NCBI GenBank assembly: GCA_945872855.1
Contig: CAMCAW010000003.1
Coordinates: forward strand, 7,140-71,139
DNA: 64,000 nt
From: Rickettsia typhi
GTDB taxonomy: Bacteria > Pseudomonadota > Alphaproteobacteria > Rickettsiales > UBA1997
Direction: 5' to 3'
Part shown: one piece after another, positions 15,423-57,424 of the stretch
Layout of the letters: each line of letters opens with the position of its first letter
Position numbering within the stretch: position 1 is the stretch's first letter
Notes under the pieces: generated by a model
The model's database searches: none
What the model was told of the DNA's origin: nothing
Seen by the model: only the letters and a program-made list of their open reading frames with translations
Translations under genes and position numbers: made by a program

Positions 15423-17321
15423 CTAACTTTCATCAGTTTTGCCCTCAATCACGCCAAGCACTTGGCCTCCATCATTATCGCTTGCGCCATCTTCAGAAGA
15501 AGATCCAACTTTGCCCTCTTGCGAAGGAGGGGAGTTTTTAGTGTCGTCACCGCCTTTTTTGCCAGTATGATTTGGCATATAAGGAATTTGATGCGGAATA
15601 TCGATCTTTGGAAGTAATCGACTAGTGAAAAGTCTCTCTTTAAAATAGATAATTTTTTTGCATCTGATTGGTGGCTGCGACTCGATTAAAATAATTTCAT
15701 CGGCGCGATCAAGTTGGATAACCTCTTGCGGCAGTAAGAGTGCGCGCTGCGTTCCAGAAACGTGTAACGAACGTGCGCCGGGGTTTAAATCTAAATATTT
15801 TGGCTTGTTATAAGAAACTTGTTCAGCAGTTTTGTTGCCTAATAATTGCGAAATTAAATTGGCCGTTTCCATGTTGTTTGCCGAGAAAGTGATGCGGAAA
15901 GTAGAGTTAGAAAGGAATGAGTTCATGCCGCTTTCTTCGTAAATTCCTTTAAGTTGCTCGGTATCTTGAATGATAAGGAAAAGCCGCACGCGATAACCGC
16001 GGAAGTATGCAATACCTGCTTGAAACTGCTCCATCTTGCCAAGAGTAGGAAACTCGTCCATTAGCATTAACACGCCAAATTTTTCATGTTTTTGTGGCAT
16101 TTTTGAAGTGAAAAACGCGGCCGCTTGTTGATAAAACATATTCATCAAAGGCTTGAGACGACTGATGTTATCTGGTGTTAGGCCGATATAAGCAGTGTGC
16201 GGTTCGGTTTTAAATTTGTGCAAGTTGAAATCGGAGGTGGCAGTTGTAGTATCGATTAGTGGGTTGGCCCAAAGCTCTAGAGAAGAGTTGGCTGTAGAGG
16301 TTACAGAGCCGCGTTCTTTATCGGGTTTTTGCAGATAAGAGGCGATGTTCATGTATGAAACGGGGTGGATTTTTTTGCCCATAGTATCAAGCACAACCGC
16401 GAGGTTGTAGACCACGTCGTCGCTTCGCAGAGTGCGCACAACTTCGCCAAGAGTTGCGGGCTTAGATTCATCGGCCACCAAATAAAGCATGATTCCTGTA
16501 AGTAGTGCACGAGCTTCATTCTGCCAAAATTCTTGTTCAGGCAAAAGAAAGCTGGCGATTTTTTGCACGTCATCAACCATTTGACCGGGTTTCTTACTGA
16601 TCCAATCCATAGGGTTGTAGCAGTGAGACACGCCATCAGGATCGGCTGGATTCCACAAAAACACCTTTTGCTTCAAGTTTTTTTTGCGCCAGCCCGAAGT
16701 TAATTCATAGTTTTCGAGCTTAATATCATGCACAATTACCGAATCGCGCCAGAATAATAAATTGGGAATTACGAAGCCCACACCTTTACCAGAACCAGTT
16801 GGAGCGAATAGTAGTAAATGTTGATAGCCATCGGCAACGAGAAAATTGCCCTGATATTTTCCGAGCAAGAGGCCGTGTTTACTGCGCAAACCCATCTTTT
16901 TTATGTCGCGCATAACGGCCCATCGCGATTCACCAAATACTGATTCGGGCTTTTTAAAAGGGCGCCAATCCATGATCGGTGCACGAAAAATAAAACCGAT
17001 AACGAACAAGACAGAGTAGGGCAGAAGCGTGCTGATCAATAATTTTGTCGAGAAATGATTATAGCTATCGGCATTAATTTTGCTGTAATTTTTGATGTAA
17101 AATTCCCAATAAGTGGTGATGGTTTTGGCAAGATAGATAAATTGCTTGTCGATGGATAATTTTCCGTAGGCTTCAATTACTTTCCAACTGCCGCTGATAC
17201 TTACAATAACTAGGGTTCCCGTGATGTAAAAACAAAGCGCCAAAAGGAAGACGGCAATGAATGCCATGATGCCGAAGTTTCGTAGATTTCGTACTAATGG
17301 ACTATCTTGAGTTCCTGCCAT
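15423..17321 (-). CDS. virD4: Type IV secretion coupling protein VirD4/TraG family.
   Basis: It has N-terminal TM helices, the Walker A motif APTGSGKGVGFVIPNLL, LMLMDEFPTLG (Walker B-like) and an acidic C-terminal tail. Confidence 0.85.
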   Translation of the reverse strand: MAGTQDSPLVRNLRNFGIMAFIAVFLLALCFYITGTLVIVSISGSWKVIEAYGKLSIDKQFIYLAKTITTYWEFYIKNYSKINADSYNHFSTKLLISTLLPYSVLFVIGFIFRAPIMDWRPFKKPESVFGESRWAVMRDIKKMGLRSKHGLLLGKYQGNFLVADGYQHLLLFAPTGSGKGVGFVIPNLLFWRDSVIVHDIKLENYELTSGWRKKNLKQKVFLWNPADPDGVSHCYNPMDWISKKPGQMVDDVQKIASFLLPEQEFWQNEARALLTGIMLYLVADESKPATLGEVVRTLRSDDVVYNLAVVLDTMGKKIHPVSYMNIASYLQKPDKERGSVTSTANSSLELWANPLIDTTTATSDFNLHKFKTEPHTAYIGLTPDNISRLKPLMNMFYQQAAAFFTSKMPQKHEKFGVLMLMDEFPTLGKMEQFQAGIAYFRGYRVRLFLIIQDTEQLKGIYEESGMNSFLSNSTFRITFSANNMETANLISQLLGNKTAEQVSYNKPKYLDLNPGARSLHVSGTQRALLLPQEVIQLDRADEIILIESQPPIRCKKIIYFKERLFTSRLLPKIDIPHQIPYMPNHTGKKGGDDTKNSPPSQEGKVGSSSEDGASDNDGGQVLGVIEGKTDES

Positions 17322-19299: not shown

Positions 19300-20050
19300 A
19301 TGTCATTCAATAATTTAAATATTTCTTCGGCTTCATTTGAGTTTTTTCCACCAGATCAAGAAAAAGACTATCATGATTTGGCGGTAAAAATCTCTAATTT
19401 ACTCTCATATCCCATGTGCCAAATTCATATCAATAACCTATGGAGCTTCAGGTTCCAAACAGGATCGTAGCATCAAATTTGCGCGTTATTTAATTTCTTA
19501 TAATCCTAATTTTGCATCCAAAATTGCTTTGCACGTTACTTGTGTTGGCAAAAGCAAAGATGCTATTTTGTGGATTATAGGAGAATTTTATAATATCGGA
19601 GTCCGCCAGTTTGTAGCGGTACGCGGTGATGGAGAAATTTTACCAGAAGGATTTTTCTATGCTTCGGATTTAATCGCAGGAATTCGTAAAAAGTTTTTTG
19701 ATGTGGCAATTTATGTGGCGGGATATCCAGAGAACCCCGCTGATCTATGCTTTTTGCGCAATAAAATTTCTTACGGAATAAATGGAATTATAACGCAAAT
19801 TTGTTTTGATGCAAAGGCGGTAGAAGATTTTTCCTATGGTCTAAATATTTCAATTTTTCCGGGAGTTGTGCTGCCTAGTGAGCGAAGCCTGTCTTTCGCT
19901 CAAAGATTAGGAATTAATGTTCCTAATAAAATTTCTGATCCCAAAACTTTTCTTAAAAATCAAGTGCAGAGCCTTATAAATTATGGCTTCAAGCATATTC
20001 ATTTCTACACCTTAAATAACGTCGATAATTTATTATTTTTACTAACTTAA
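19300..20050 (+). pseudogene. metF: Methylenetetrahydrofolate reductase, split by a +1 frame change near 19388-19421.
   Basis: The first frame gives MSFNNLNISSASFEFFPP...ISNLLSY. The next frame gives PCAKFISITYGASGS...HVTCVGKS...AVRGD...GYPE...HFYTLN. Together they reproduce the MetF motif order (SFEFFPP, FVSVTYGA, HLTC, ALRGD, AYPE, FHFYTLN). Confidence 0.75.
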
Positions 20051-23213: not shown

Positions 23214-23858
23214 TTATTTTTTATCAACCTCGACTTGCTTCAATTTTTCATGGAAAATATACCATGCAAAAAGAACTTTAACTTTTAAAATTGATGGGTT
23301 TTTTCCTAGCGAAATATTGATAAAATCTTCTTGATTATATTTACGAGATTTAGTCATTTCGATTGAAGAGATGACAGTATAGCCGGGTAGTTTATTAAAA
23401 AATTCACTAATAAAAGCTAGCGCTTTAACGTCGCTCAAAGCATCGAATGATAGGGTTACGCTGCTATAAGATACGTTAATGGTTTTTCGCTGAAAAACTC
23501 CCGCATCTAGATTTTCTGGCAACACAACTTGTATCGATGGAGCATAAAGATTGTATTTGTCAGCCAGATTTCCGATTATTTTATTAACATCGTCCATTCT
23601 AATTCCGCGCGTGCTTTTTTTGTTGTCGCTAAGCGTTTTCCATACCTCTTTATATTTTCTAGCTTGACTAGTTTGGCTTTCTAATTCTTGAGTTTGGCTC
23701 CTAATTACGCTGGCCTCTCTATGAATTTGATCAATTTCTTGATCGCTATATTTTTGTTTATTTGAAATATAAAAGGCAACGATAGCGGCAGCGGCAAGTA
23801 ATGCCACTGAGGCTATAAAATTAATGGCAATTTTGCGACGAAGCTGTTGTATTTTCAT
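23214..23858 (-). CDS. Bitopic membrane protein with GspM/PilO-like topology; hypothetical.
   Basis: It has an N-terminal TM segment (INFIASVALLAAAAIVAFYI), a coiled-coil segment, then a ~120-aa alpha/beta-looking domain. Its ATG shares one nucleotide with the upstream TGA stop (TGATG at 23856-23860). Confidence 0.45.
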   Translation of the reverse strand: MKIQQLRRKIAINFIASVALLAAAAIVAFYISNKQKYSDQEIDQIHREASVIRSQTQELESQTSQARKYKEVWKTLSDNKKSTRGIRMDDVNKIIGNLADKYNLYAPSIQVVLPENLDAGVFQRKTINVSYSSVTLSFDALSDVKALAFISEFFNKLPGYTVISSIEMTKSRKYNQEDFINISLGKNPSILKVKVLFAWYIFHEKLKQVEVDKK

Positions 23859-25420
23859 CAATTATTGCTTAGTGAAAAATTGATCGGAAAATCATAATAT
23901 TTTTTGGTAAAATCTATGTTGCGAGGCAATTCGGAGTAGGTCAGTTTATTTTTATCGAATGTTTTTTTGAATTGAGATGTGAGGCCGTCGAATTCGGTGA
24001 ATAAATCTTCGATATCGCCGCTACGATTTGAAATTTCGCCGCTTAGAGAGATTTTATAATTAACATTATTAGTGGGCGCTTTATAAGTAAAATTTGTGAG
24101 CGTATAAGAAAATCCATTCAACTTTGCGCCATATTCTTTGATGAATTTTAGTTTAATATAAACCTCGGGAATGCTTGCCCCTACTGATCCAATAGCATCA
24201 TTGATTCTGCCAATATCAAGTATGCGATCTATTTCTACTGTCTCGTTAGCATCAGTGAAAATTTCGCCATCAAGTGCGGCGCTTTTAACTTTGCTAAGAG
24301 ATTGTGCGGCGGAAAGGCGATCAATTTCAGCGATAGATTTTATTTCAGCAATATTGTTTTGGCTGTTGATAGCGAAGAGGCAAGTGGCGCCAATTAGCAT
24401 TAACAGCAATAAATTTAGATAATATGACGAGCGAATTATCAGAAATAATTTTTCGAATGTAGAAATCGCCGCTGTGGTAAATTTTAGGAGCTTTTTTTTG
24501 CTGCTGGCAAAAACTTTTGCAATTAATAAATCGCAAAATTCACTATCTTTAGGAATTAGATTATTGTATCCCGCACCAGAAGCAGCTTGGAACGGAGTAT
24601 AATTTACGAAATGAAAATCGATGTTGGTAATGCTATTTAGTTTTGCTAAAATTTTGGTTGGAAAAATATTGATAATATCGAGCTCGCTAATGTGCAAATC
24701 GGGAAAAAGTCGCTTCAAATATTCGAAAGTGCTATGAATATCTTGCTCGTATTTTTCTAAAAAATCGGGTTCTTCAAAGTTATAATTTACGACGCGAGTA
24801 AAAATAATTCCATCATTTGAGAACACGGTTTGCCTGATTCCGCTAACTTTATTTTGCAAAAGCAGGCAATATAAATCGTTTCTTTTATTTTTAATTTGAG
24901 AAGAAGATTTGATGTTTAGTTTTAGTAATTTAAACAAAGAAAATGTCTCAATTGGCGACATATAAATGCCCGATACGCGATTAGGCATTTCAAGGGCGAA
25001 ATTTATCCAAGCGTTAGTTGTTTCAGAGTTTGAGGAGGATACAAACAGGCATTCCCATTTTTTTTGCGAGGCAGGGGTGCCTTTGGGATATTTTCCATCG
25101 CCCAAAATAATGTAATTTTTCAGGCTTTCTTTATCGGCGTCATTGGCAATATCGCGTTTTATCAGGTGAATTAAATCGCTTTTTCGAACATAAGGATAGG
25201 TTTTTTTCTTGTAGCTTTGATCTACGGTATCTAGAAGAAAATGGATTGGTGTCGATTTATATTTAGTGAATAATTCTTGTAAACTTTTTTTGTTTTCTTC
25301 GGTGAATGAATCAAAAAAAATTGTTTGTTCTATATTTTTTCCATTGTGTAAAGTGACCACTGAGCCATAATTTCCGATCGTAACAACAAAATTGCTTTCT
25401 GAGATTATTTTGGTAATCAT
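23858..25420 (-). CDS. Membrane protein with GspL- or PilM-PilN-fusion-like topology; hypothetical.
   Basis: Of 520 aa, about 330 form a cytoplasmic N-domain. One central TM follows (YYLNLLLLMLIGATCLFAI), then a ~160-aa periplasmic domain. I recognise no catalytic motifs. Confidence 0.45.
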   Translation of the reverse strand: MITKIISESNFVVTIGNYGSVVTLHNGKNIEQTIFFDSFTEENKKSLQELFTKYKSTPIHFLLDTVDQSYKKKTYPYVRKSDLIHLIKRDIANDADKESLKNYIILGDGKYPKGTPASQKKWECLFVSSSNSETTNAWINFALEMPNRVSGIYMSPIETFSLFKLLKLNIKSSSQIKNKRNDLYCLLLQNKVSGIRQTVFSNDGIIFTRVVNYNFEEPDFLEKYEQDIHSTFEYLKRLFPDLHISELDIINIFPTKILAKLNSITNIDFHFVNYTPFQAASGAGYNNLIPKDSEFCDLLIAKVFASSKKKLLKFTTAAISTFEKLFLIIRSSYYLNLLLLMLIGATCLFAINSQNNIAEIKSIAEIDRLSAAQSLSKVKSAALDGEIFTDANETVEIDRILDIGRINDAIGSVGASIPEVYIKLKFIKEYGAKLNGFSYTLTNFTYKAPTNNVNYKISLSGEISNRSGDIEDLFTEFDGLTSQFKKTFDKNKLTYSELPRNIDFTKKYYDFPINFSLSNN

Positions 25421-26044: not shown

Positions 26045-27442
26045 ATGAACTACATAATCTACGGCCTAGGCATCTCTGGCCTCGCAACCGCCAAATACCT
26101 AATCAAAGCCAACCAAAAAGTAACAATCACCGACGACAATGAAAGCGCCATAGAAGCTGCTCGCAGCAAGCTCGCAGAAGAAATATCTCAACATCAAGGC
26201 AATATAAAATTTACAAAATCATCAGAAATAGAATGCTCTGCAGACACTTCAGTAATCTTCGCTCCCGGCATTCCACTTTATTACCCCAAGCCCCATAAAA
26301 TTCTAGAAATCGTCAAAAAATCTGGCGCAAAATTATTATGCGATGTTGAGTTGTTTTATTTATTGAACGGCGATAAAACTTTTTTAGGAATCACTGGAAC
26401 CAACGGCAAATCTACAACCACAGCGCTCACAGGCTTTATTTTTGACGAGCTAAAAGTGAGTGCGCAAATTGGTGGAAATATCGGCGTGCCTTGTTTTGCA
26501 ATGCCAAAAGCCAATAATTATGTTTTCGAAACCTCATCTTATCATTTAGATTTGATGGAAAAAACTCATTTCAAAATCGCTGCGCTTACAAACATAACGC
26601 CAGATCACATTGATCGTCATGGTTCTTTCGAAAATTATGTTGCGATAAAAAAGAAAATTTTTGCCAACCAAACCGCCGCAGACTACGCAATTATTGGGGT
26701 TGATAATGAGTATTCTAAAAATATTCTTATCGAATTAGCGGGCGATAAAAGCTTCAAAGCCACGTTAATCGCGGTTTCAACGCAAAAAATTTGTGCAGGC
26801 GGAGTTGCAATTATTGACGGAATTTTGCACAATAAAATTGATGAAGCGGCGTCAGACCTATCTCTAGAAGGCATTGTTTTAAAAGGCGAACATAACATGC
26901 AAAATATCGCCGTGGCTTTTGCTAGCACTTATTGCTCGCTTTATAAAATTATGGAGCCAAAAGAATTAGAGCAAAAGATTATTGCCGCAATCAAGAAATT
27001 CAAGGGTTTGCGTCATCGTATGCAGCTTCTTGGAAATGTTGAGGGTGTAAATTTTATCAATGATAGCAAGGCTACCAACGCCGAATCCACCGAAAACGCT
27101 CTTAAATCTTATGAAAATATTTTTTGGATTTTAGGCGGAAAGCCCAAGGAGGGTGGAATATCAAGCTTGCAGCCTTACTTTAAAAAAATCACCAAAGCTT
27201 ATTTGATTGGAGAGGCCTCTGATCAATTTGCTGAAGTTTTGCAAAAAAATAATGTTGAATTTGTAAAATGTGTCGATTTAAAAAATGCCTTTAACCAAGC
27301 TTTTCTAGGCGCAAAAAAATCTAGCTTAAAAGAAAAAAATATTCTACTTTCTCCTGCTTGCGCCTCTTTCGATCAATGGAAAAATTTTGAAGAGCGCGGC
27401 GATTATTTCTGCAAAGAATTTGATGAAATTAACAAGATTTGA
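26045..27442 (+). CDS. murD: UDP-N-acetylmuramoylalanine--D-glutamate ligase.
   Basis: It has a GLGISG N-terminus and the GITGTNGKSTT P-loop. Length is 465 aa. Confidence 0.9.
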   Translation: MNYIIYGLGISGLATAKYLIKANQKVTITDDNESAIEAARSKLAEEISQHQGNIKFTKSSEIECSADTSVIFAPGIPLYYPKPHKILEIVKKSGAKLLCDVELFYLLNGDKTFLGITGTNGKSTTTALTGFIFDELKVSAQIGGNIGVPCFAMPKANNYVFETSSYHLDLMEKTHFKIAALTNITPDHIDRHGSFENYVAIKKKIFANQTAADYAIIGVDNEYSKNILIELAGDKSFKATLIAVSTQKICAGGVAIIDGILHNKIDEAASDLSLEGIVLKGEHNMQNIAVAFASTYCSLYKIMEPKELEQKIIAAIKKFKGLRHRMQLLGNVEGVNFINDSKATNAESTENALKSYENIFWILGGKPKEGGISSLQPYFKKITKAYLIGEASDQFAEVLQKNNVEFVKCVDLKNAFNQAFLGAKKSSLKEKNILLSPACASFDQWKNFEERGDYFCKEFDEINKI

Positions 27443-55794: not shown

Positions 55795-55911
55795 GATTTT
55801 TTAAATTGAGTATTTTATTAATGTTGTGCCAAACTATTGAAATTGCTCGTTTTAAAGCTTTTTTTACCAAGAATTAATAAATGCAAAATTTATTATCAAA
55901 ACAAAACTAAA

Positions 55912-57423
55912 ATGCCCATTTTAAATTGGTTAAATCGCGATAAATCTATTAAAAAAGCTGCAAACGCGCCCTATCGCTTGCTTGAAGCTGATGATGTTTT
56001 TTCTTACGGCGATCAAAATTCGCAAAATTTGTTGATTCAAGGCGATAATTTAGAGGCTTTGAAGGCTCTCTTACCTTATTATGCGGGCAAAGTGAAATGT
56101 GTTTATATTGACCCGCCTTACAACACTGGCAGCGCTTTTGAGCATTATGATGATAATTTAGAACATTCTAAATGGTTAGAAATGATGTATCCACGGCTTG
56201 AATTGTTGCGTGAATTGCTGGCAGAAGATGGTAGTATTTGGATTTCGATTGATGATGATGAGGGGCATTATTTGAAGGTGATTTGTGATGAGATTTTTGG
56301 GAGAAAAAACTTTGTTGCAAATGTTGTTTGGCAGAAAAAGTATTCGCCACAAAATGATGCTAAATGGTTAAGTGATAGTCATGACCATATAATTATTTTT
56401 GCAAAGAATAAATCGGTTTGGAGGCCGAATTTACTTATTAGAACAGAGGAGATGAATGACAGATATAAAAATGTAGATAATGATATAAGGGGAGTTTGGA
56501 AATCTGGAGATATGTCTGTGAAAAGAGAGACCGCTAAAGATATCTACGAAATCACAACCCCATCAGGAAGAAAAGTTTTGCCACCAAAAGGCAGAAGCTG
56601 GGTTTTTTCTAAAGAAAAATTTGCAGAAATGTTGGCTGATAATCGTATTTACTTTGGCCCAAAAGGAAGTAATGTTCCATCGGTAAAAAGATTCCTCTCC
56701 GAAGTAAAAGACGGCGTAACCCCAATGACTCTGTGGACCTATCAAGAAGTTGGCCATAATCAAGATGCAAAAAAAGAAGTAAAAGAATTAAATTTAGGCG
56801 AAGTTTTTGGCACACCAAAACCAGAAAAACTAATCCAGAGAATAATTCAACTTGCCACCAACGAAAACGACCTAGTTCTCGACTCATTTCTTGGCTCTGG
56901 CACCACCGCAGCAGTTGCCCACAAAATGAATCGTCGCTATATAGGAATTGAAATGGGAGAACATGCAAAAACCCATTGCGCCTTGCGCCTAAAAAAAGTA
57001 ATTGATGGCGAGCAAGGCGGAATCTCGCCAAGCCTTAATTGGCAAGGTGGCGGAGGTTTTCGTTTTTACAATCTTGGCGAAACAATTTTTGATGAAGAAG
57101 GAAAAATAAATCCAAAAATAAAATTTCAACATTTAGCCGCTCATATTTGGTTTAGTGAAACCCTAGAGCCTCTAGGGCAAAAAGCCAATTCACCCTTATT
57201 AGGAATTTATAAAAACACCGCCTATTATTTGCTTTATAATGGAATTCTTGGCGACAAAACCATTAGCGGCGGCAATGTTTTAACCAATAAAATTTTAAAA
57301 TTATTGCCAAAATTTAGCGGCGAAAAAGTAATTTATGGCGAAGCGAGCCGCCTTGCCCCAAGCATTTTGCAAGAAAATAAAATCACCTTCAAGCAAACTC
57401 CTTACGACATTAAAGCAAGATAA
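55912..57423 (+). CDS. mod: Type III restriction-modification methyltransferase (Mod), beta-class N6-adenine/N4-cytosine MTase.
   Basis: The catalytic motif IDPPYNTG precedes the AdoMet motif DSFLGSGTT. The start is taken at MPILNWLN (55912). Confidence 0.85.
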   Translation: MPILNWLNRDKSIKKAANAPYRLLEADDVFSYGDQNSQNLLIQGDNLEALKALLPYYAGKVKCVYIDPPYNTGSAFEHYDDNLEHSKWLEMMYPRLELLRELLAEDGSIWISIDDDEGHYLKVICDEIFGRKNFVANVVWQKKYSPQNDAKWLSDSHDHIIIFAKNKSVWRPNLLIRTEEMNDRYKNVDNDIRGVWKSGDMSVKRETAKDIYEITTPSGRKVLPPKGRSWVFSKEKFAEMLADNRIYFGPKGSNVPSVKRFLSEVKDGVTPMTLWTYQEVGHNQDAKKEVKELNLGEVFGTPKPEKLIQRIIQLATNENDLVLDSFLGSGTTAAVAHKMNRRYIGIEMGEHAKTHCALRLKKVIDGEQGGISPSLNWQGGGGFRFYNLGETIFDEEGKINPKIKFQHLAAHIWFSETLEPLGQKANSPLLGIYKNTAYYLLYNGILGDKTISGGNVLTNKILKLLPKFSGEKVIYGEASRLAPSILQENKITFKQTPYDIKAR

Positions 57424-57424
57424 A

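Follow-up and report, generated by a model that had tools for sequence, protein, structure and literature searches.

A giant cysteine-rich protein with tandem CCP/Sushi-like modules in Gamibacteraceae-like Rickettsiales, a possible surface contact fibre

In this study, a stretch of 64,000 nucleotides (hereafter the window) from a genome assembly deposited as Rickettsia typhi (GCA_945872855.1; contig CAMCAW010000003.1, positions 7,140 to 71,139) was analysed. It carries a 5.7-kb gene (27423..33113, + strand) encoding a giant cysteine-rich protein of 1,896 amino acids (aa). An earlier note on this DNA had assigned the protein to no known family. It is not an isolated oddity: we found a conserved family, syntenic in most loci and seen only in metagenome-assembled genomes (MAGs) of uncultured, aquatic, Gamibacteraceae-like Rickettsiales. 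The window protein belongs to it, being homologous and collinear over its full length, from the signal peptide and LPDC start through the Cys-rich body and CCP-like array to the variable tip. The family is new and uncharacterised, and only its Sushi-like part is of a known kind: as judged from the sequence pattern and a structural model, aa 1113-1768 are seven tandem modules resembling complement control protein (CCP), or Sushi, modules. We tentatively interpret the protein as a disulfide-stabilised envelope or surface contact fibre, adhesin-like or receptor-binding, of Gamibacteraceae-type Rickettsiales.

Sushi/CCP modules comprise ~60 residues, with Cys I paired to III and II to IV. In the giant protein the pattern C...C...C..G.W....C could be followed by eye along the stalk, with 3-4 residues from Cys IV to the next Cys I. 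Four invariant or near-invariant Cys were present in five of the seven modules, and the Trp in six. Module 1 (aa 1113-1219, 30759..31079; all parts of the protein are on the + strand) contains a long insertion and has invariant Cys and Trp (Cys 1113, 1181, 1202, 1219; Trp 1211). It is followed by three further CCP/Sushi-like modules: module 2 (aa 1224-1324, 31092..31394; Cys 1224, 1278, 1311, 1324; Trp 1317), module 3 (aa 1329-1411, 31407..31655; Cys 1329, 1379, 1398, 1411; Trp 1404) and module 4 (aa 1415-1513, 31665..31961; Cys 1415, 1453, 1492, 1513; Trp 1506). Modules 5 (aa 1517-1601, 31971..32225) and 6 (aa 1605-1682, 32235..32468) are CCP-like but degenerate. The former is without the second Cys (Cys 1517, 1587, 1601; Trp 1594), and the latter is without the first Cys and the Trp (Cys 1639, 1659, 1682); the odd Cys of these two modules may pair as an inter-module bond. 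The array closes with CCP/Sushi-like module 7 (aa 1687-1768, 32481..32726; Cys 1687, 1723, 1750, 1768), the Trp of which (W1760) aligns with a family column that is W in 37 of 41 sequences. All modules are longer (78-107 aa, with inserted helices or loops) than the canonical length, and for this reason they are named CCP-like here rather than canonical Sushi.

Profile comparisons with hhalign supported the repeat structure. Modules 1, 2, 3, 4 and 7 match each other with a probability of 82-97%, versus ~0 for two control segments. Modules 1 and 7 matched CCP3 at 92.9% and 92.8%, respectively, and module 2 matched CCP4 at 96.9% and CCP3 at 96.2%. Module 6 was linked to CCP4 at 69.8%, and the links of module 5 were weak (at most 51%). 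When 43 family members were searched singly against Pfam, matches to Ephrin_CRD (18 members, best 3.1e-10), Sushi (14, best 3.4e-6) and HRM (5) were obtained; all three are Sushi-type folds. In the homologues with displayed coordinates these matches fall at the position of module 7, and those of homologues P0002, P0012 and P0024 lie in the final one or two modules. No PDB sequence was matched by a profile of the CCP region, and a word-seeded search with this profile returned three family fragments and nothing else.

The structural model pointed in the same direction. The AlphaFold2 model of aa 1020-1896 had a predicted local distance difference test score (pLDDT) of 83. A Foldseek search of BFVD with this C-terminal model placed three gammaherpesvirus Sushi/complement-control proteins at the top (probability 0.90-0.99, E 3e-4 to 6e-4, ~320 columns), and the best match in PDB, a weak one, was the EphA4 ectodomain (E 2.6e-3). 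The earlier note had assigned the protein to an unknown family. This holds for the window protein as a whole in searches of Pfam, NCBIfam and PDB sequences, and for its N-terminal body, but it does not hold for aa ~1113-1768 with their seven CCP/Sushi-like modules. The same modules lend some support to the idea of a eukaryote-like mosaic protein raised in that note.

Cysteines run along the whole protein, as had been noticed from the sequence. The protein has 87 Cys (4.59%), versus 0.96% in the 25 other open reading frames (ORFs) of the window (binomial p = 7e-32). The mature chain would contain 86 of them: 56 in the body, 26 in the stalk and 4 in the tip. A parity check proposed earlier thus gave an even number for every region. 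Even numbers per region fit disulfide bonding, and even numbers per module suggest intramolecular rather than intermolecular bonds. In a full-length alignment of 41 sequences at 32-58% identity, most Cys are invariant or at least 90% conserved, and Trp and Gly positions are likewise invariant. Conservation in this alignment extends from residue ~60 to ~1770 and then falls sharply over the last ~126 residues.

The N-terminal Cys-rich body (aa 59-1110, 27597..30752) carries 56 Cys, nearly all of them invariant. It opens with short (P)GxNC...(LP)LC hairpin-like motifs, which are followed by a beta-rich core at aa ~495-955. In one homologue of 2,565 aa (L027:5697-13391; L numbers denote loci of the survey described below) the (P)GxNC repeat region is present in two or three copies. 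On sequence comparison, this body of 1,050 aa is without detectable relatives outside the family. No match was found in Pfam or NCBIfam with the whole window protein, nor in PDB sequences with either the whole protein or the 41-sequence profile. Searched singly over their N-terminal 1,120 aa, 41 of 42 family members gave nothing in Pfam and one gave a marginal match to TIL_2. No internal repeats were found in the body above 40% probability (hhalign, 325 window pairs), and no cryptic CCP modules were found there.

The AlphaFold2 model of the N-terminal segment, built from a 25-sequence alignment, had a mean pLDDT of 69 and a predicted template modelling score (pTM) of 0.43, with the core at aa ~495-955 mostly at 70-90. 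No match at E<=1e-3 was obtained when the whole N-terminal model was compared with PDB by Foldseek. The weak list for the body consisted mostly of beta-propeller proteins (WD40, sialidases, DPP-IV, sema domains and paramyxovirus attachment proteins; probability at most 0.11), and as a lead only, aa ~495-955 might be propeller-like. A helical hairpin was predicted at aa 953-999 (30279..30419), its helices at segment positions 898-918 and 924-944 having pLDDT 83-88. It has two Cys per helix (C954/C961 and C988/C996), all four invariant, which may staple the two helices together.

The C-terminal tip domain (aa 1771-1896, 32733..33110) has 4 Cys and a conserved C-x-D-G core, and it ends in IAWWD. 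That the C-terminus is a distinct module had been proposed earlier and is borne out by the alignment: column identity is 0.11-0.26 over the last ~126 aa, versus about 0.3-0.6 for most of the remaining protein. The tip was predicted to be all-beta, at lower confidence (pLDDT 55-85), and the tip of the window protein had no Pfam match. The 41 tips fall into 21 BLAST clusters, and tip type does not track overall similarity: the closest homologue (P0002) is without a BLAST-similar tip, whereas more distant proteins have the IA(W/V)WD type of the window. Lineage-specific insertions were also seen, comprising beta/gamma-crystallin and Gly_rich_2 domains as well as extra N-terminal repeats. The beta/gamma-crystallin match was found in P0024, with the corresponding stretch visible in the P0025 sequence, and the Gly_rich_2 domain was found in P0072.

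The N-terminus is, by its layout, a Sec-type signal peptide (aa 1-58, 27423..27596) with a long basic n-region and an h-region; cleavage is likely between AQS and LPNC, in the context YAQS-LPNC. The hydrophobic N-terminus described earlier was recovered as the only hydrophobic segment of the protein (aa 29-56, best 19-aa window from 32 on the Kyte-Doolittle scale), and nearly all of 60 homologue N-termini share a basic n-region, an h-region of ~20 aa and small residues, usually followed by LP(D/S/N)C. A lipoprotein was considered and rejected: the Cys in the h-region of the window protein is not conserved, and LPDC is no lipobox. The mature protein would have a mass of ~200 kDa and an isoelectric point of ~5.5.

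The claim of a single intact 5.7-kb ORF was confirmed at 27423-33113 (+). In the ORF listing the uninterrupted frame spans 27387..33113 (+) and reads 1908 aa from a TTG; the ATG at 27423, giving 1896 aa plus stop, is the better start by comparison of sequences, because the closest homologues begin there with MKLTR(F/V/A)EK. An upstream extension (..AETTSxS(F/Y)LM) recurs in some gene calls because it overlaps the conserved murD 3' end in another frame.

The distribution of the family was examined by searches of protein sequences and by a locus scan. A word-seeded search returned 93 homologues (31-59% identity), of which 87 exceed 1,800 aa; every one derives from a metagenome or MAG and carries no name beyond 'hypothetical'. 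When 1.84 billion cluster representatives were searched exhaustively with a profile of the first 1,120 residues, 146 proteins were recovered at E<=1e-3, all of the same family. The profile search also reached distant relatives of 2,400-4,800 aa, whose names, where given, are those of '[Rickettsiales bacterium]' MAG proteins; in these, Pfam gave weak Sushi/Ephrin_CRD matches only and no informative extra domain. The locus scan, with one genome per GTDB species, yielded 53 loci. Every one lies in a MAG that bears the label Rickettsiales or Alphaproteobacteria, and these MAGs were obtained from lakes, aquifers and sea water. The named 'Candidatus Gamibacteraceae' MAGs all carry the family: UBA2645 (L024), RIFCSPLOWO2_01_FULL_40_26 (L004) and C-132 (L044).

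Some of the records bear implausible organism names: 'Rickettsia typhi' (L001, L009, L018, L027, L030, L038, L043 and L045), 'Rhizobium sp.' (L010, L011, L015 and others) and 'Lentimonas sp.' (L032). Since such names are implausible for lake MAGs with the giant gene and its synteny, they look like taxonomic mislabelling or mis-binning.

Gamibacteraceae have been described, in the parts of two papers that deal with them, as sister to the ectosymbiont 'Ca. Deianiraea vastatrix' and proposed to live extracellularly on protists (PMC9352585; PMC10847448). They are reported there to be without flagella and ATP/ADP translocase and to keep most biosynthesis, type IV pili, the rvh type IV secretion system (T4SS) and FhaBC (PMC9352585; PMC10847448). 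Where these papers discuss adhesion and secretion in the group, their text makes no mention of such a protein (PMC9352585; PMC10847448), and a search of the available literature library found no paper linking Sushi, Rickettsiales and cysteine-rich proteins.

The giant gene lies between murD (UDP-N-acetylmuramoyl-L-alanine--D-glutamate ligase; 26045..27442, +; NCBIfam TIGR01087, 354.9 bits) upstream and purE (33151..33618, +; NCBIfam TIGR01162) downstream. The last 20 nt of murD are shared with the start of the giant gene. Between the three genes no convincing terminator was found, and a promoter/terminator scan gave no clear operon boundary. Among the 53 loci, the homologue is immediately preceded by murD in 44 and immediately followed by purE in 41, and the order murD-giant-purE is kept in about 80%. 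Identity between the window and the other loci is 41-82% for MurD and 66-81% for PurE, versus a range of 28-66% in the giant protein (taken from the best segment of each locus, with short N-terminal fragments at the upper end). From the synteny and these identity ranges, the giant gene is vertically inherited and evolves faster than its neighbours, yet clearly under constraint.

ORFs of 1,836-2,565 aa are intact in 42 of the 53 loci. The damaged or short loci are L036 (frameshift), L044 (in-frame stop), L053 (split) and L035 (shorter); the rest are cut by contig ends. An alternative order was seen in L043:1352-6330 and L053:2933-8526, where murD and purE are adjacent and a partial giant homologue is downstream of purE. 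Both L006 and L016 come from one MAG, which therefore has two copies or is a mixed bin. A distant relative of 2,454 aa sits in another gene context. The G+C content of the giant gene is 0.42-0.435, versus 0.35-0.39 in its flanks (window 28000-34000). This probably reflects the Gly/Cys/Ala-rich composition and not foreign origin. Recent horizontal transfer was rejected despite the slightly raised G+C, because synteny is family-wide.

A body unlike described proteins, Sushi modules and a fast-changing tip together make the protein a good candidate for attachment to partner cells. In the contact-fibre interpretation, the best supported of those considered but far from assured, a protein of ~200 kDa would be exported by Sec and oxidised in the periplasm, the 86 Cys of its mature chain forming as many as 43 disulfides. 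It would form a rigid, elongated, modular molecule, with the conserved body as base, the Sushi array as spacer or stalk and the variable tip in distal position. The tip would bind a partner that differs between lineages, probably the surface of a protist host. An outward-facing position is favoured by the far greater variability of the tip, the uncoupling of tip type from overall similarity and the lineage-specific domain insertions. The contact-fibre interpretation also agrees with the proposed extracellular symbiosis of the Gamibacteraceae.

A number of observations weigh against this interpretation. The protein is known here from gene sequences, and the host association of the clade, drawn from the literature, is a proposed one. 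The window protein's own modules stay below every Pfam threshold, and the isolated modules and tip gave only noise at E<=10. The N-terminal model is only moderately confident, and the body is conserved as strongly as the stalk, so that an internal structural role would fit too. Pfam, NCBIfam and family scans revealed nothing by which the protein could cross the outer membrane or be anchored in it (no beta-barrel, two-partner secretion (TPS) domain, RTX or type I secretion system (T1SS) features, lipobox or sorting motif). The ~43 predicted disulfides imply folding in the periplasm, and a survey of Rickettsiales secretion makes, in the part that covers these systems, no mention of type II secretion (PMC10847448). 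Surface exposure is therefore hypothetical. Given the predicted periplasmic folding with ~43 disulfides, export would need a secretin (the clade has type IV pilus machinery) or a Ptl-like use of the T4SS (after the Ptl system of Bordetella pertussis), both speculative.

The main rival is a disulfide-cross-linked structural scaffold of the periplasm or envelope, possibly tethered by an uncleaved signal anchor, that would stiffen or organise the envelope; it would be a functional analogue of OmcB/OmcA, the Cys-rich proteins of the chlamydial outer-membrane complex. Apart from the Sec signal no targeting feature was seen, nor any module for export across the outer membrane, as a scaffold of this kind would explain, and the extreme, conserved Cys content, the highly conserved body and the stable place beside murD, with overlapping frames and no predicted terminator in murD-giant-purE, agree with it. 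However, Pfam scans found no peptidoglycan-binding or membrane-anchor domain, the acpS, purE and GST neighbours do not make a functional envelope cluster, and no sequence relation to chlamydial Cys-rich proteins was detected (no Pfam match). A hypervariable, apparently shuffled tip with lineage-specific insertions is also hard to explain in a protein that meets only conserved components of its own cell, and we regard the scaffold as rather unlikely. An even more doubtful proposition takes the contact fibre further, to the defining host-contact organelle of the ectosymbiotic Rickettsiales branch. It would be a new class of surface fibre with ~43 disulfides, a Sushi stalk and a diversifying receptor-binding tip, exported by a route unlike that of known giant adhesins, for instance through the secretin of the type IV pili or by the rvh T4SS working in the manner of Ptl, with body folds absent from PDB.

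That the protein is secreted and acts at a distance on host or prey, as a toxin or an effector-like binding protein leaving the periplasm by a secretin or the T4SS, appears quite improbable. A precedent is pertussis toxin: the Ptl system of Bordetella pertussis, a T4SS of VirB type, exports this disulfide-rich, Sec-dependent protein from the periplasm. The clade is described, in the pertinent part of one paper, as keeping the rvh T4SS and type IV pili (PMC10847448), and the window has virD4 10 kb upstream of the giant gene; in related loci, however, the giant gene is unlinked to T4SS genes. Both models gave weak Foldseek matches to Tc-toxin A subunits, but these were non-significant (probability at most 0.11), and no catalytic, pore-forming or toxin domain was present in about 85 sequences scanned. 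The uniform single-gene architecture, moreover, looks structural and not enzymatic. That the gene is a decaying or non-functional long ORF, or an assembly artefact, is scarcely credible. All data are from MAGs, and the frameshift, stop, split and shortening in L036, L044, L053 and L035 would fit such a history, but 42 independent MAG loci have intact ORFs, Cys, Trp and Gly are invariant at 32-58% identity, and synteny is conserved. An artefact or pseudogene is excluded by this conservation.

Arrays of CCP/Sushi (SCR) modules are known from eukaryotes and viruses, as in factor H, CR1, the complement-control proteins of herpesviruses and poxviruses, and the Sushi part of the Eph-receptor cysteine-rich domain. 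The giant protein shares with them tandem small beta modules that each carry four Cys, the third and fourth flanking a Trp, the 3-4-residue linkers from Cys IV to the next Cys I, and the matches to Pfam Sushi/Ephrin_CRD/HRM and, by Foldseek, to viral Sushi proteins. A rigid protein-binding or spacer array is the likely role in both. It differs from them in the length of its modules (78-107 aa versus ~60), with helical or loop insertions, and in the two of seven modules that are without one Cys. It is also bacterial, fused to an unrelated Cys-rich body of 1,050 aa, and below the Pfam threshold in the window copy. There was no sign of recent transfer from a eukaryote, the identity in structural alignments being 14-16%.

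Giant bacterial adhesins offer a second comparison. They include the RTX/BIg proteins of T1SS (SiiE, LapA), the type V secretion system proteins including rickettsial Sca, FhaB of TPS, and the inverse autotransporters intimin/invasin. They resemble the giant protein in size, in a modular stalk of small beta domains, in a variable distal domain and in occurring in a lineage thought to attach to hosts; the base-stalk-tip layout is that of intimin/invasin. The giant protein differs from them in that it is without a beta-barrel, TPS domain, RTX repeats or C-terminal T1SS signal, and its stalk is Sushi-like, not of BIg, cadherin or beta-helix type. Known giant adhesins pass through the outer membrane in an unfolded state and for this reason contain few Cys, whereas the giant protein combines a Sec signal with 86 Cys in its mature chain. 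The earlier report of no autotransporter, RTX, Rhs, FhaB or T9SS signature agrees with our Pfam and NCBIfam searches, in which no such match appeared. A type V autotransporter or Sca protein was rejected, as Pfam and NCBIfam gave no match, the C-terminal 126 aa are a small Cys-containing domain, and the body has 56 Cys and gave no barrel in Foldseek. A T1SS RTX/BIg adhesin was rejected on the presence of a Sec signal, the absence of RTX/BIg matches and the 4.6% Cys. FhaB-type TPS was rejected for want of a TPS domain, the N-terminal 1,120 aa being Pfam-negative in all but the one member with the marginal TIL_2 match.

The chlamydial proteins OmcB and OmcA are also Sec-exported, very Cys-rich envelope proteins of host-associated bacteria, with possible disulfide rigidity and possibly adhesion in common with the giant protein. 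The latter, however, has no sequence or domain relation to them, is about four times larger, is modular with Sushi-like repeats, and has even Cys numbers per module. Since the defining features of the autotransporter/Sca, RTX/BIg, FhaB and chlamydial Omc families were tested and not found, the giant protein is placed outside all four.

The housekeeping surroundings reported earlier were also found here: acpS, murD, purE, GST, polA, metE and many other biosynthetic and housekeeping genes are present in the window. A VirD4-type T4SS coupling protein is encoded at 15423-17321 (-; Pfam T4SS-DNA_transf, 474 bits) and a weak RP854-like protein at 23214-23861 (-). Both are hallmarks of Rickettsiales and in line with the taxonomic placement of the window, whose gene content also agrees with the published description of Gamibacteraceae. 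An ORF of 520 aa (23858-25420, -), located two genes upstream of murD, had no Pfam or NCBIfam match; it is lineage-specific and kept in the closest relatives (80% in L001, 79% in L046 and 47% in L002). A DNA methylase gene (N6_N4_Mtase; 55837-57423, +) is followed by an overlapping ResIII helicase-type ORF (57335-60037, +), and from their sequences the two are probably a type III restriction-modification pair in an otherwise housekeeping stretch. An ORF directly upstream of metE (19529-20050, +) matches only positions 75-276 of the MTHFR profile; either metF is truncated or the start is mis-called in the mechanical ORF list. No match was obtained when the window was scanned for tRNAs and with Rfam.

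Gamibacteraceae and their relatives mark a point in the evolution of Rickettsiales where extracellular host association is thought to precede intracellular life. For host contact, only FhaBC homologues and pili have, to our knowledge, been described in these bacteria. The giant protein could serve as a clade marker and as a target for antibodies or for localisation coupled with fluorescence in situ hybridisation, and it is a candidate determinant of host range. The family adds a well-populated bacterial example of CCP/Sushi-like arrays, and its ~1,000 conserved, disulfide-rich residues without detectable relatives are of interest for fold discovery. Should the protein prove to be only periplasmic, it would instead represent an unusual disulfide-based envelope scaffold outside Chlamydia.

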